A DNA stretch of 64,000 nt from Escherichia coli. Its GTDB lineage: Bacteria > Pseudomonadota > Gammaproteobacteria > Enterobacterales > Enterobacteriaceae. Location of the stretch: NCBI RefSeq assembly GCF_044647545.1, contig NZ_CP172818.1. The stretch is one strand, 5' to 3'. The notes under the pieces were generated by a model. It searched no databases and had not been told where the DNA came from. It saw only the letters and a program-made list of their open reading frames with translations. Each line of letters opens with the position of its first letter. The stretch's first letter is position 1. A program made the position numbers and the translations under genes. Shown here piece after piece: positions 23,315 to 28,559 of this stretch.

Positions 23315-25204
23315 TTACGCATCGCCACCGAAACGACGACGACCGGTAGAGTCATCACGACGCGGTGCGCGGCCTTCACGACGTTCGCCGCTAAAACGAC
23401 GACCATCACCACGGCCACCTTCACGGCGTTCACCGCTGAAGTTACGACCGCCTTCACGACGTTCGCCACCGAAACCACGACCACCGCCACGACGCTCACC
23501 GCCAGTATGCGGCTGTGCATCGCCCAGTAACTGCATATTCATCGGCTTGTTGAGAATGCGAGTACGCGTAAAGTGTTGCAGCACTTCACCCGGCATACCT
23601 TTCGGCAGTTCGATGGTGGAGTGAGAAGCAAACAGCTTGATGTTACCGATGTAACGGCTGCTGATGTCGCCTTCGTTAGCAATCGCACCAACGATATGAC
23701 GAACTTCAACACCATCATCGCGGCCCACTTCAATGCGGTACAGCTGCATATCGCCAACATCACGACGTTCACGACGCGGACGATCTTCACGGTCACCACG
23801 CGGGCCACGGTCGTTACGATCGCGCGGACCACGGTCATCACGGTCACGGAATTCACGTTTCGGACGCATCGGCGCATCTGGCGGAACAATCAGAGTACGT
23901 TCACCCTGTGCCATTTTCAGCAGTGCGGCGGCCAGAGTTTCGAGATCCAGCTCTTCACCTTCTGCCGTCGGCTGAATTTTGCTCAGCAGTGCACGGTATT
24001 GATCCAGATCGCTGCTTTCCAGCTGCTGCTGTACTTTAGCGGCGAATTTTTCCAGACGACGTTTGCCCAGCAGTTCTGCGTTCGGCAGTTCAACTTCCGG
24101 AATGGTCAGCTTCATGGTGCGTTCAATGTTACGCAGCAGACGACGCTCACGGTTCTCAACGAACAGCAGCGCACGGCCAGCACGGCCCGCACGACCAGTA
24201 CGACCGATACGGTGAACGTAAGACTCAGAATCCATCGGGATATCGTAGTTAACTACCAGGCTGATACGCTCAACGTCCAGGCCACGGGCCGCAACGTCGG
24301 TCGCAATCAGGATGTCCAGACGACCATCTTTCAGTCGTTCCAGTGTCTGCTCACGCAGCGCCTGGTTCATGTCACCGTTCAGCGCGGCGCTGTTGTAGCC
24401 GTTACGCTCAAGGGCTTCTGCCACTTCCAGAGTCGCGTTTTTGGTACGAACGAAGATAATCGCCGCATCAAAATCTTCCGCTTCCAGGAAACGTACCAGT
24501 GCTTCGTTTTTACGCATACCCCAGACAGTCCAGTAGCTCTGGCTGATGTCAGGACGGGTAGTCACGCTGGACTGAATGCGCACTTCCTGCGGCTCTTTCA
24601 TAAAGCGGCGGGTAATGCGACGAATCGCTTCCGGCATGGTTGCAGAGAACAGAGCGGTCTGATGACCTTCCGGGATCTGCGCCATAATAGTTTCAACGTC
24701 TTCGATGAAGCCCATGCGCAGCATTTCGTCAGCTTCATCCAGAACCAGACCGCTCAGTTTAGAGAGGTCCAGAGTGCCACGTTTCAGGTGGTCCAGCAGA
24801 CGGCCCGGAGTACCGACAACGATCTGCGGCCCCTGACGCAGGGCGCGTAATTGCACGTCATAACGCTGGCCGCCGTACAGGGCAACCACATTTACGCCGC
24901 GCATGTGTTTAGAGAAATCCGTCATTGCCTCAGCAACCTGTACCGCCAGTTCGCGGGTCGGTGCCAACACCAGAATCTGTGGTGCTTTCAGCTCAGGATC
25001 AAGATTCTGCAGCAGAGGTAAAGAGAATGCTGCAGTTTTTCCGCTCCCCGTCTGGGCCATACCCAGGACGTCGCGGCCATTCAGCAGATGTGGAATACAC
25101 TCTGCCTGAATTGGAGATGGTTTTTCGTAACCCAGATCGTTAAGGGCTTCAAGGATAGGAGCCTTCAGGCCCAGATCTGCAAAAGTGGTTTCGAATTCAG
25201 CCAT
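23315..25204 (-). CDS. deaD: DeaD (CsdA) cold-shock DEAD-box RNA helicase
   Basis: ATG at 25204 ([33 protein letters not shown]), 629 aa, DEAD box present; the track ORF begins 22 codons upstream. Confidence 0.92.
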
Positions 25205-25277
25205 GTAGTACGTGTGCCTCAAAATTAATGGCGGCCAGTCTACATAACTCATCATGAAATTGATCAGCAATTTTCAT
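25197..25277 (-). CDS. yrbN: YrbN, 26-aa small protein encoded in the deaD leader
   Basis: ATG at 25277, translation [26 protein letters not shown], stop overlapping the deaD start codon; matches the recalled 26-aa size of yrbN. Confidence 0.65.
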
Positions 25278-25383
25278 TGAAAAGTGTGAACCGGCTCAAA
25301 GTAGGTGTATTAACGAACAACAACGCCCTCACCCGTTAAGGTGATGGCAATCAAAAAAGATTACGGGCTGATGTGTACGTCAG

Positions 25384-26268
25384 CTATTGCTGGTCCGATT
25401 CTGCCAGGTCATCTTGGTCCTGGCCCAGGAGCGATAATTCCAACAATGCGTATCGGTGCTCAACAAAGTTATGAACGTTGTTGGCAACCGCCAGTTTGAA
25501 CAGTGCCGTGGCGCTGTCCAAATCCCCCAGACTTAGGTAGTACTTACCTAAATAGAAGTTGGTTTCACTGAGATGCTCAGCGAGCGAGGTGTTATCCGTT
25601 GCGTCCGCCTTGAGCCTTTCCATTAACGTTTGTTCGCTAATGTTGCCCAGGTAGAACTCGACAATGTTCCATCCCCACTGTTCCTTATCCGATTTTTCGA
25701 AGTGCTGTTTCAACACTTCTTTAGCCTGCTTCTCATCGAGCTTCTGCTCGGCGAGATAAAGCCACAGACTACGGAAAGGATCATTAGGATCGTCTTGATA
25801 AAACGCCAGCAGATCATCTTGCGCTAACTTGTCACGACCGCCGTAATATAATGCGATCCCGCGATTCAAGTGCGCGTAGTTGTAAGTTGGATCAAGCTCA
25901 AGTACAGAATCAAACGCTTCATAGGCAGCATCAAAATTGCCTGCCTGCGTTAAATATATGCCTAAGTAATTGAATACTTCAGGCATATCCGGTCGGATTG
26001 CCAGCGCTTGCGAAAAATCGTTACGCGCTAATGCCCTCAGACCGAGACTATCATACAACACTCCGCGCTCATATAAAAGCTGTGCGCGTTCGTCATCGGT
26101 TAAAGCCCGACTGGCAAGGATTTGTTCCATACGTGCCAGAATCACTTCCTGCTGTAAAGTCGGTTGCAATGGTACCGCGAGGACTTCACTTTTACGCCAG
26201 GAAGTATTACTGCATCCTGCAAGCGTAAGTGCTGTCGCAACGAAACACCAGCGCAAAAAAGGCTTCAT
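25384..26268 (-). CDS. nlpI: NlpI, TPR-repeat outer-membrane lipoprotein
   Basis: 294-aa ORF with lipoprotein signal LTLAGC. Confidence 0.92.
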
Positions 26269-26339
26269 TTCCCACTCCCGAAGACCACGGTTGAATGAAC
26301 GTCCTGTTCCCGGTTGCTAACAAGGCGTCCTGCCCGGTT

Positions 26340-26370
26340 AAAAGCCCCCCGCCGCAGCGGAGGGCAAATG
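26340..26370 (-). terminator. GC-rich hairpin downstream of pnp (pnp terminator / nlpI promoter region)
   Basis: ccccccgccgcagcggaggg region with a T-run on the minus strand. Confidence 0.35.
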
Positions 26371-26376
26371 GCAACC

Positions 26377-28512
26377 TTACTCGCCCTGTTCAGCAGCCGG
26401 AGCTTCCGGTGCTGCAGCAGGTTGAGACTGCTCAGTCGCTTCTTTAATGCTCAGACGGATACGGCCCTGGCGATCAACTTCCAGAACTTTCACCGGTACT
26501 TCCTGACCCATCTGCAGGTAATCGGTCACTTTCTCAACGCGTTTGTCAGCGATCTGAGAGATGTGTACCAGACCTTCTTTACCGCCGCCGATGGCAACAA
26601 ATGCGCCAAAGTCAACGATACGGGTCACTTTACCATTGTAGACGCGGCCCACTTCGATTTCTGCAGTGATCTCTTCGATACGACGAATAGCATGTTTCGC
26701 TTTCTCGCCGTCGGTCGCTGCGATTTTCACAGTACCGTCATCTTCGATTTCGATGGTGGTGCCAGTTTCTTCGGTCAGAGCACGGATAACAGAACCGCCT
26801 TTACCGATAACGTCTTTGATCTTGTCCGGGTTGATCTTGATGGTATGGATACGCGGAGCGAACTCAGAGATATCGCCGCGCGGCGCGTTGATCGCCTGTT
26901 CCATTACGCCCAGGATATGCAGACGCGCACCTTTAGCCTGGTTCAGTGCAACCTGCATGATCTCTTTGGTGATACCTTCAATTTTGATATCCATCTGCAA
27001 TGCAGAGATACCGTCGCGGGAACCCGCAACTTTGAAGTCCATATCGCCCAGGTGATCTTCGTCGCCCAAAATGTCAGACAGTACAACGTAGTTGTCGCCT
27101 TCTTTCACCAGACCCATTGCGATACCCGCAACAGCAGCTTTGATCGGCACACCTGCGTCCATCAGCGCCAGAGACGCGCCGCACACGGAAGCCATAGAAG
27201 AAGAACCGTTGGATTCGGTGATTTCAGACACCACACGTACGGTGTACGGGAATTTGTCCATATCCGGCATGACTGCCAGCACGCCGCGCTTCGCCAGACG
27301 ACCGTGACCAATTTCACGACGCTTCGGAGAACCGACCATGCCGGTTTCGCCTACGGAGTACGGAGGGAAGTTGTAGTGGAACAGGAAGGTGTCAGTACGT
27401 TCGCCCATCAGTTCATCAAGAACTTGCGCGTCACGTGCAGTACCCAGCGTTGCGGTAACCAGCGCCTGAGTTTCACCACGGGTGAAAAGCGCAGAACCGT
27501 GAGTACGCGGCAGCACGCCAGTACGCACATCCAGACCACGAATCATATCTTTTTCACGACCGTCGATACGCGGTTCGCCTGCCAGTACGCGGCTACGAAC
27601 AACGTTTTTCTCGATAGCGTGCAGAATTTCACCCAGTTCGTTTTCGTCCAGGGTTTCATCTTCAGCAAGCAGCGTCGCGATGGTTTCAGATTTGATGACA
27701 TCAACCTGCGCATAACGCTCTTGTTTGTCGGTGATGCGGTAAGCATCGCTCAGACGAGCTTCAGCCAGTGCAGCAACGCGCGCGTTCAGCGCTTCGTTTA
27801 CCGGCTCCGGCTGCCAGTCCCAACGCGGTTTACCGGCTTCTTTCACCAGTTCATTGATGTTCTGAATAACAACCTGCTGTTGTTCATGACCGAACACTAC
27901 TGCGCCCAGCATCTGGTCTTCGCTCAGCAGTTCAGCTTCAGATTCAACCATCAGTACAGCTGCTTCAGTACCCGCAACAACCAGATCCAGTTTGCTCTCT
28001 TTCAGCTCGTCCTGAGTCGGGTTCAGTACGTACTGGTCATTGATGTAACCTACGCGGGCAGCACCAATCGGACCATTGAACGGAATACCAGACAGAGACA
28101 GTGCTGCGGAAGCACCAATCATCGCGACGATATCCGGGTTAACTTGCGGGTTAACAGAAACCACGGTGGCGATAACCTGAACTTCGTTGACGAAGCCTTC
28201 CGGGAACAGCGGGCGAATCGGGCGGTCAATCAGACGCGCGATCAGGGTTTCGCCTTCGCTTGGGCGGCCTTCACGACGGAAGAAGCTACCCGGGATACGA
28301 CCAGCAGCGTAGGTACGCTCCTGATAGTTAACGGTCAGTGGGAAGAAGTCCTGACCTGGTTTGGCTTTTTTCTGGCCAACAACGGTAACGAATACCGCGG
28401 TGTCATCCATGCTAACCATAACAGCGGCAGTAGCCTGACGAGCCATCATGCCGGTTTCCAGAGTCACGGTGTGTTGGCCGTACTGGAATTTACGAACGAT
28501 CGGATTAAGCAA
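26377..28512 (-). CDS. pnp: Polynucleotide phosphorylase (PNPase)
   Basis: 711 aa from the UUG start (ttgcttaatccg = M-L-N-P); the track ORF begins 29 codons upstream. Confidence 0.92.
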
Positions 28513-28559
28513 TGTAATATCCTTTCTCTTTCTTAGACAGTACCTTACGGCACTGGTGT

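Follow-up and report, generated by a model that had tools for sequence, protein, structure and literature searches.

In Escherichia coli, the gene pairs trpE-trpD, trpB-trpA and galT-galK are translationally coupled by termination-reinitiation. Another arrangement is found in MS2 coat-replicase, secM-secA and ermCL-ermC, where a masked initiation region is opened by a ribosome on the upstream ORF. The 5'UTR of the cspA mRNA is a cold-sensing structural switch. The junction studied here, between the small ORF yrbN and deaD, which encodes the main cold-shock RNA helicase of E. coli (DeaD, or CsdA), has something in common with each of these systems. As in the trpE-trpD type, the upstream stop lies a few nucleotides from the downstream start, a weak Shine-Dalgarno (SD) sequence sits inside the upstream ORF and both frames are on one transcript; however, yrbN is not an enzyme gene but an ORF of 26 codons with a near-neutral peptide, and the overlap is 8 or 11 nt instead of 1-4. 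As in the MS2, secM and ermCL systems, the SD and AUG of deaD have predicted pairing partners in codons of the upstream ORF, but secM and ermCL depend on a ribosome that stalls, and they stop short of the masked site, whereas the yrbN frame spans both hairpin arms and finishes at the deaD start; any ribosome that passes would open the hairpin, and no arrest signal is evident. The likeness to cspA consists of a cold-shock gene, a long leader and alternative RNA structures near the start codon, with the differences that no Rfam 15 family, the cspA element included, matched positions 24900-26400 on either strand at E <= 1, that the alternative structures show no consistent temperature dependence, and that the deaD element holds a translated-looking ORF. 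Systems of the trpL/hisL or arrest-peptide type offer a further comparison: the corresponding codon runs and peptide-specific constraint were looked for in yrbN and not found. Finally, yrbN resembles tnaC, speFL and mgtL in being a short ORF in a long leader subject to Rho-dependent termination (PMC12360218), but no ligand or arrest peptide is known for it and the Rho-sensitive region lies mostly upstream; unlike uORF-controlled attenuators, a construct reduced to the final 100 nt of the deaD leader loses Rho dependence (PMC7430678).

The window, that is, the whole 64,000-nt stretch of E. coli DNA analysed, carries on its minus strand the gene order pnp, nlpI, yrbN, deaD, mtr according to the ORF map (Table 1). 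An earlier note had delimited and translated an ATG-to-TGA ORF ahead of deaD and named it yrbN, within the deaD leader. It is real, with the same coordinates and translation, and the name is right: the E. coli records listed, and the one opened, carry a RefSeq annotation 'protein YrbN' on the deaD strand, between nlpI and deaD, and the peptide matches the NCBIfam equivalog NF033440 'small_YrbN' at 76.3 bits (E = 9.4e-22; curated cut-off 33 bits), residues 1-26 aligning with positions 1-26 of the 26-position family HMM. The window ORF is therefore the already annotated E. coli gene yrbN, a known feature, and is the same gene, with no difference, as the members of the YrbN family (K-12 yrbN; UniProt C1P618; NF033440). 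Its annotation dates from 2008 and carries no function. The note had also described the stop as overlapping the deaD ATG; the two ORFs do overlap, by 8 nt (ATGGCTGA), but the ATG triplet itself (25204..25202) stays clear of the TGA, which occupies deaD +6..+8 (codons 2-3). In E. coli, a 401-nt query around the ORF found matches in 5425 of 5426 complete genomes, with at least 99% identity in 5424.

Table 1. Features of the yrbN-deaD region, in window coordinates
Feature	Position	Strand	Sequence and remarks
deaD promoter inside nlpI	26050..26077	-	TTTATA, 16 nt, TATGAT; sole promoter-like match in scan
nlpI	26268..25384	-	Stop at 25384-25386; ORF map
G+C-rich hairpin followed by T-rich run	25325..25348	-	GCCATCACCTTAACGGGTGAGGGC; between nlpI stop and yrbN
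Near-invariant non-coding block	25278..25300	-	TTTGAGCCGGTTCACACTTTTCA; directly 5' of yrbN ATG; 0-1 changes per site, 75 taxa
P1 5' strand (candidate helix)	25285-25295	-	GCCGGTTCACA; RNAalifold
yrbN ORF	25277..25197	-	26 codons + TGA; last 81 nt of the 838-nt deaD leader; 8-nt overlap with deaD
Weak A/U hairpin P1a	25255..25276	-	TGAAAATTG...CAATTTCA; MFE folds; includes UG of yrbN AUG
P2 5' arm	25233..25249	-	AGTTATGTAGACTGGCC; yrbN codons 10-15 (GAG UUA UGU AGA CUG GCC)
deaD Shine-Dalgarno-like GAGG	25217..25220	-	Alignment columns invariant
P2 3' arm	25199..25218	-	GGCACACGTACTACATGGCT; holds GG of GAGG, deaD ATG and deaD codon 2
deaD (csdA) CDS	23315..25204	-	629 codons + stop; N-terminus MAEFETTF

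Taken by itself, the ORF is unremarkable. The chance of 26 stop-free codons is about 0.29 ((61/64)^26), and the ORF list has 78 ORFs of at least 20 amino acids overlapping this 5-kb stretch; it is from comparison between species that yrbN draws its significance. We scanned for the DeaD N-terminus with one genome per species, which gave 80 loci, of which two were incomplete and 78 complete ones were used. They cover Escherichia, Salmonella, Klebsiella, Citrobacter, Kosakonia, Cedecea, Edwardsiella, Hafnia, Serratia, Yersinia, Rahnella, Dickeya, Pectobacterium, Brenneria, the Pantoea group, Sodalis, Budvicia, Photorhabdus and Xenorhabdus. Conservation of the small ORF in related genera, a check proposed in the earlier note, turned out to be complete: the reading frame is intact in all 78 Enterobacterales loci of other species. 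In 71 of them yrbN has 24-26 codons and its stop falls inside deaD, with an overlap of 8 nt, or of 11 nt in loci whose deaD carries one more Thr codon. The other seven (Pantoea group, Dickeya, Sodalis) have an ORF of 18-19 codons whose TAA or TGA abuts the GAGG, as TGAGG or TAAGAGG, 11-16 nt upstream of the deaD ATG. The yrbN stop thus lies within about 20 nt of the deaD start in the window and across the 78 loci. The ATG and the AAA that follows it hardly ever change (a single AAT among 71 sequences), and a peptide motif, F-x-D-E-L-C-R-L-A-A, is nearly invariant in the 78-locus set.

The limits of this distribution can be followed in loci outside this set. An Enterobacteriaceae metagenome-assembled genome (MAG) has the 19-codon version, and a Plesiomonas MAG retains a recognisable, diverged element whose uORF counts 10 codons and ends 33 nt before deaD. 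In a 298-kb endosymbiont genome, nlpI and the yrbN ORF are both lost. The ORF is also missing from two Psychromonas-type loci and from three metagenome contigs with pnp-nlpI-deaD synteny (40-43% G+C; DeaD about 70% identical), which we guess to be Pasteurellaceae.

What is conserved in yrbN was then characterized at the level of single sites. In deaD the conservation line of the alignment has a clear period of three bases, which is absent from yrbN, and the 23 nt ahead of the yrbN ATG vary as little as the core of the ORF. Fitch parsimony on a tree of 75 taxa assigns 1.9, 0.76 and 12.6 changes per site to deaD codon positions 1, 2 and 3, and about 0.7 changes per site to the third positions of yrbN codons 10-16; codons 3-6, 8-9 and 17-19 of yrbN vary freely at every position. 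By Nei-Gojobori counting over 13 genera, pN/pS is 0.76 for yrbN (codons 2-16) versus 0.11 for deaD. Within the core, codons 10-16, pS is 0.056 and pN 0.057 (pN/pS 1.0), against a pS of 0.577 in deaD: the synonymous sites of the yrbN core evolve about 10 times more slowly than those of deaD. This substitution pattern indicates that protein-like purifying selection on the peptide is absent and that strong selection acts at the nucleotide level. The only conserved stretch of the peptide, DELCRLAA, is equally conserved at synonymous sites, so that the peptide core is inseparable from RNA-level conservation.

Yet the frame is kept. None of 31 haplotypes has an in-frame stop in the fast-evolving codons 3-9, whereas the other two frames of the flanking segment (codons 2-11) contain stops in 19 and 26 of 33 haplotypes. 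A composition-matched shuffled haplotype stays open with probability 0.59, and the figure for about 10 independent lineages all remaining open is roughly 0.005, the haplotypes themselves not being independent. Indels in the read-through loci are multiples of three, including one of 3 nt between GAGG and ATG; two +1 indels, in Dickeya and Sodalis, make the ORF end at the very next TGA, which abuts the GAGG. Such a pattern is what one expects of an ORF for which translation counts and the product does not.

The conserved core of yrbN is also predicted to form the 5' arm of a hairpin, P2, that covers the start of deaD. In E. coli, AGUUAUGUAGACUGGCC (25249-25233) would pair with GGCACACGUACUACAUGGCU (25218-25199). 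Folding of 58 nt, from yrbN codon 9 to deaD codon 3, gave -19.5 kcal/mol and z = -3.91, with none of 200 dinucleotide shuffles as stable. Equivalent hairpins are the minimum free energy (MFE) structure in every unique sequence of all lineages, at -15 to -21 kcal/mol, and z lies between -2.3 and -4.4 in nine of ten other genera; the hairpin of Edwardsiella is no better than shuffles (z = -0.75). Pairs involving deaD -3..+6 persist in 82-100% of the 56 unique sequences. The pair between yrbN U92 and deaD +4 is U-G in 25 sequences, U-A in 27, G-U in one (Sodalis, with both sides changed) and G-G in three. The GAGG precedes the ATG by 12 nt in E. coli and by 9 nt in sequences of the Serratia type. 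Opening the initiation region of deaD is predicted to cost 7.8-15.9 kcal/mol at 37 C, rising to 11.6-22.9 at 15 C; for the yrbN start the cost is 5.3-8.6 kcal/mol, below that of deaD in all 15 genera. Gammaproteobacterial contigs without the uORF have a deaD opening cost of 3.9-6.8, a comparison confounded by their lower G+C. Modelled in this way, the deaD start is predicted to be masked, in every lineage, by pairing with yrbN codons.

A competing structure involves the near-invariant block ahead of yrbN. RNAalifold predicts a helix, P1, between GCCGGUUCACA (25295-25285) and UGUAGACUGGC (25244-25234); as this 3' strand lies within the 5' arm of P2, P1 and P2 are mutually exclusive. Changes in P1 are one-sided only (G-U to A-U in 10 sequences, C-G to U-G in 2), and the Plesiomonas MAG keeps the helix and lengthens it to nine contiguous pairs. 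By equilibrium prediction, P2 is the favoured fold in 12 of the 15 genera and P1 in the other three (Kosakonia, Pantoea and Cedecea). MFE folds also contain P1a, whose apex corresponds to the variable codons 3-6 and whose core pairs come from invariant columns; 90% of its cells are paired, and the extension of its stem varies between lineages. The block before the yrbN ATG holds no SD. As a counterpoint to be kept in mind, yrbN thus has an AUG that combines the lack of an SD with a position inside a weak hairpin. Pair counts for P1 and P2 give 96-99% paired cells (99% in P1), no double changes, and shuffles that all equal the observed value; the only pair with a double change in the RNAalifold output falls outside P1, P1a and P2. 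Since the paired columns hardly vary, covariation neither supports nor contradicts any of the three, and it is thus thermodynamics and conservation that argue for the hairpin. Predicted occupancies of P1 and P2 follow no consistent trend between 10 and 42 C across the 15 genera, and an RNA thermometer was rejected as a candidate.

We propose that yrbN is a genuine conserved uORF acting in cis, for which being translated matters and the peptide does not, and which is coupled to deaD by unmasking and termination-reinitiation; we give this reading about an even chance. In the free mRNA, yrbN codons 10-15 would pair with the GG of the deaD SD and with the AUG, masking the initiation region. A ribosome would initiate at the SD-less, A/U-rich yrbN AUG, melt P2 while elongating, and terminate on the UGA 5 nt past the deaD AUG; a few genera have instead a UGA or UAA abutting the GAGG. 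Termination would expose the deaD start and leave the ribosome there, allowing it to reinitiate. Coupling is favoured because the stop is always near the deaD ATG, because the start is predicted to pair with yrbN codons, and because the frame remains open though the peptide is near-neutral. These three computed results support the first half of the suggestion in the earlier note, 'translational coupling or leader-peptide control'. The SD of deaD is only a GAGG, and this weak SD sits inside yrbN. An AAA second codon favours initiation. In an RNA-seq table from Erwinia, yrbN and the helicase gene are co-induced. In the searchable ribosome-profiling supplements, including the Salmonella small-protein census, yrbN is not listed. 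Three parts of this reading are inferred: yrbN would have to be translated at a useful rate, P2 would have to form in vivo, and translation of yrbN would have to be required for that of deaD. The effect may also be of the opposite sign, as a ribosome moving across the deaD start could block it and be inhibitory.

The other half of the suggestion, control by a leader peptide, has a history of its own. A 2021 preprint traces yrbN to Hemm et al. 2008, who discovered it with models of sequence conservation. The YrbN family carries no assigned function; the preprint itself already suggested a leader-peptide role (10.1101/2021.03.08.434349). In its GFP series, expression is already fully repressed by longer leader fragments without yrbN, so the series cannot isolate an effect of yrbN (10.1101/2021.03.08.434349). 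A cold-induced band appears as 'yrbN_PAIR_0' in a figure legend of VanOrsdel 2018; we discarded it, as the main text assigns the cold-induced band to YnfR. In our analysis a sensing leader peptide found no support: yrbN has no regulatory codon runs, the terminator scan found no intrinsic terminator 3' of it, and no constraint specific to the peptide was detected.

Alternatively, yrbN could be a sensing leader ORF: a ribosome whose rate or position on yrbN is altered in the cold would select between P1 and P2 and shield the end of the leader from Rho, setting both read-through into deaD and its translation. A promoter scan gave a -10 TATGAT at 26055-26050, and the G at 26042 lies 838 nt upstream of the deaD ATG, in agreement with the mapped -10 TATGAT and transcription start at -838 (Ojha & Jain 2020, PMC7430678). 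That study, which makes no mention of yrbN, established that DeaD autoregulates through the deaD 5'UTR, by mRNA stability and Rho-dependent termination, and found Rho products in vitro at 400-900 nt into the leader (PMC7430678); yrbN occupies +766..+846. Cold antitermination at deaD is described in a 2025 review as 'exact mechanism undetermined', and the same review provides precedents of uORF-dependent Rho control in tnaC, speFL and mgtL (PMC12360218). Two mutually exclusive pairings sharing the yrbN core would suit such a mechanism. Against it, P1 and P2 show no consistent temperature trend at equilibrium, regulatory codon runs and an evident arrest motif are both missing from yrbN, and most Rho termination would fall upstream of the ORF. 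Moreover, a deletion of -101..-820 keeps the yrbN module and abolishes both autoregulation and Rho dependence (PMC7430678), from which it follows that the module alone confers neither; the module is unlikely to be the sensor for DeaD autoregulation, and we rejected it in that role. On balance we regard the sensing ORF as unlikely.

The same leader contains the conserved G+C-rich hairpin and T-rich run between the nlpI stop and yrbN. It is seen in 15 genera, with two pairs showing compensatory changes (AU<->GC and CG<->UA), and the larger fold around it has z = -3.2. It resembles a terminator or attenuator within the leader of deaD, although an interruption of the T-run keeps a simple terminator scan from calling it in E. 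coli.

A third reading dispenses with translation: the region would be a pure RNA element, such as a structural switch, a place where a protein or an RNase binds, or a feature for Rho utilisation, with the ORF as a by-product whose translation is without consequence. The extension of nucleotide conservation 23 nt beyond the yrbN ATG speaks for it, as do the missing SD, the substitutions unlike those of a protein and the known mediation of autoregulation by the deaD 5'UTR through mRNA stability and Rho (PMC7430678). A by-product, however, would not be expected to behave as yrbN does: its fast codons never gain an in-frame stop while the other frames often do, indels keep the frame or end the ORF exactly at the deaD ribosome-binding site, and the ATG and AAA codons hardly change. 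No Rfam family matches either, and we consider a pure RNA element quite unlikely.

Lastly, YrbN could be a functional small protein acting in trans, on DeaD, the degradosome or the cold-shock machinery, the overlap serving only to ensure co-expression; a tagged yrbN product has reportedly been detected, which counts for it. This we hold to be very unlikely: a nearly invariant motif, a curated NCBIfam equivalog model and the report of yrbN among conserved small-protein genes (Hemm et al. 2008, cited in 10.1101/2021.03.08.434349) are set against residues that are conserved at all three codon positions next to an equally invariant non-coding block, so that RNA-level constraint explains the motif, and against the pN/pS values overall and in the core, residues 3-6 and a C-terminal third that are free to vary, versions of only 18-19 residues in the Pantoea-group, Dickeya and Sodalis loci and the Enterobacteriaceae MAG, and a Pfam search of the peptide that gave no domain match.

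Coupling by unmasking and termination-reinitiation is thus the reading we prefer. New here are the intact ORF across Enterobacterales, its substitution pattern and the conserved predicted hairpin. They do not reveal a new kind of system; their added value is a defined, conserved structural rationale. The conservation of yrbN is of a 'translated but peptide-indifferent' type, with codons predicted to mask the deaD start, and a vague suggestion of a leader ORF becomes a simple hypothesis open to mutational test. The invariant GCCGGUUCACA could pair instead with the same yrbN codons and free the deaD start without translation, making a two-state switch possible. More far-reaching is the idea that the last ~100 nt of the leader (the block, yrbN and P1/P2) are a switch operated by ribosomes, in which translation of yrbN would control both exposure of the deaD start and shielding of the transcript end from Rho; we advance it as improbable, on a level with the pure RNA element. 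If true, such a switch would supply the mechanism of cold-induced deaD antitermination and translation across Enterobacterales.

Transcription of deaD (csdA), the cold-shock RNA helicase gene, appears to start well inside the gene upstream of it. A scan of 1.3 kb returned a single sigma-70-like match, located within the nlpI coding sequence (see table), and both this site and its start agree with published data, which place the deaD promoter here and the transcription start at -838. Most of the 'untranslated' deaD leader is therefore nlpI coding sequence, namely the last two-thirds (3' part) of that gene's frame.

Downstream of the nlpI stop, and ahead of yrbN, the 26-codon ORF that overlaps the deaD start, the leader contains a G+C-rich hairpin with a T-rich run after it; an outer stem (ACGAACA/UGUUCGU) surrounds the hairpin. 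The hairpin is kept in 15 genera, with compensatory changes at two of its pairs (AU to or from GC, and CG to or from UA); in E. coli, it was not called by a simple terminator scan. Its form suggests an attenuator or a leaky terminator of nlpI, through which deaD transcripts must pass.

Features of the deaD region, in window coordinates
Feature	Position	Strand	Details
Sigma-70-like site (promoter scan)	26050-26077	-	TTTATA, 16 nt, TATGAT; start at 26042
G+C-rich hairpin, then T-rich run	25325-25348, within 25305-25385	-	GCCATCACC-TTAA-CGGGTGAGGGC
Upstream extension of the deaD frame	25205-25270	-	TTG at 25270; 651-aa ORF
Stop-free ORF antisense to deaD	23573-24850	+	425 aa
Stop-free ORF antisense to pnp	26314-28536	+	740 aa

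Further downstream, the deaD frame itself remains open upstream of its start as far as a TTG codon and includes ATG codons at positions -51 and -48, so that the yrbN core is covered by two open frames in E. coli. We take this region to be the one formerly annotated as an N-terminal extension of DeaD/CsdA.

Two loci in other assemblies call for separate comment. The first, L086 (positions 1190-1330 in a Plesiomonas sp. MAG), is a diverged yrbN element in which the distance from the small ORF's ATG to the conserved AUGUARACUGG is 5 nt shorter; this brings a UAA into frame and leaves a 10-codon ORF that stops 33 nt upstream of deaD. P1, the candidate helix between the block upstream of the yrbN ATG and the yrbN core, is present and predicted to extend to 9 contiguous pairs, and the hairpin masking the deaD start is absent from the structure prediction. 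As this element is a single MAG sequence, an assembly error is possible. The second, L021, is an enterobacterial-type junction, with a YrbN-like ORF and a 98% identical DeaD N-terminus, on a 459-nt contig (NZ_RKME01000079.1, coverage 0.73) of the actinobacterial assembly 'Gordonia sp. OPL2', and is almost certainly a contamination.

On the opposite strand, the stop-free ORFs antisense to deaD and pnp probably reflect no more than the codon usage of highly expressed genes. The one opposite pnp equals in length the listed pnp-frame ORF.

Published expression data name yrbN in two instances. The cold-induced band labelled 'yrbN_PAIR_0' in the Figure 2 legend of VanOrsdel et al. 2018 is identified in the main text as YnfR, beside a cold-shock gene (PMC6001520). 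In one RNA-seq comparison in Erwinia amylovora, the top up-regulated genes include yrbN (3.65) and a DEAD/DEAH helicase gene (3.84) (PMC9371280), a joint up-regulation consistent with a single shared transcript.
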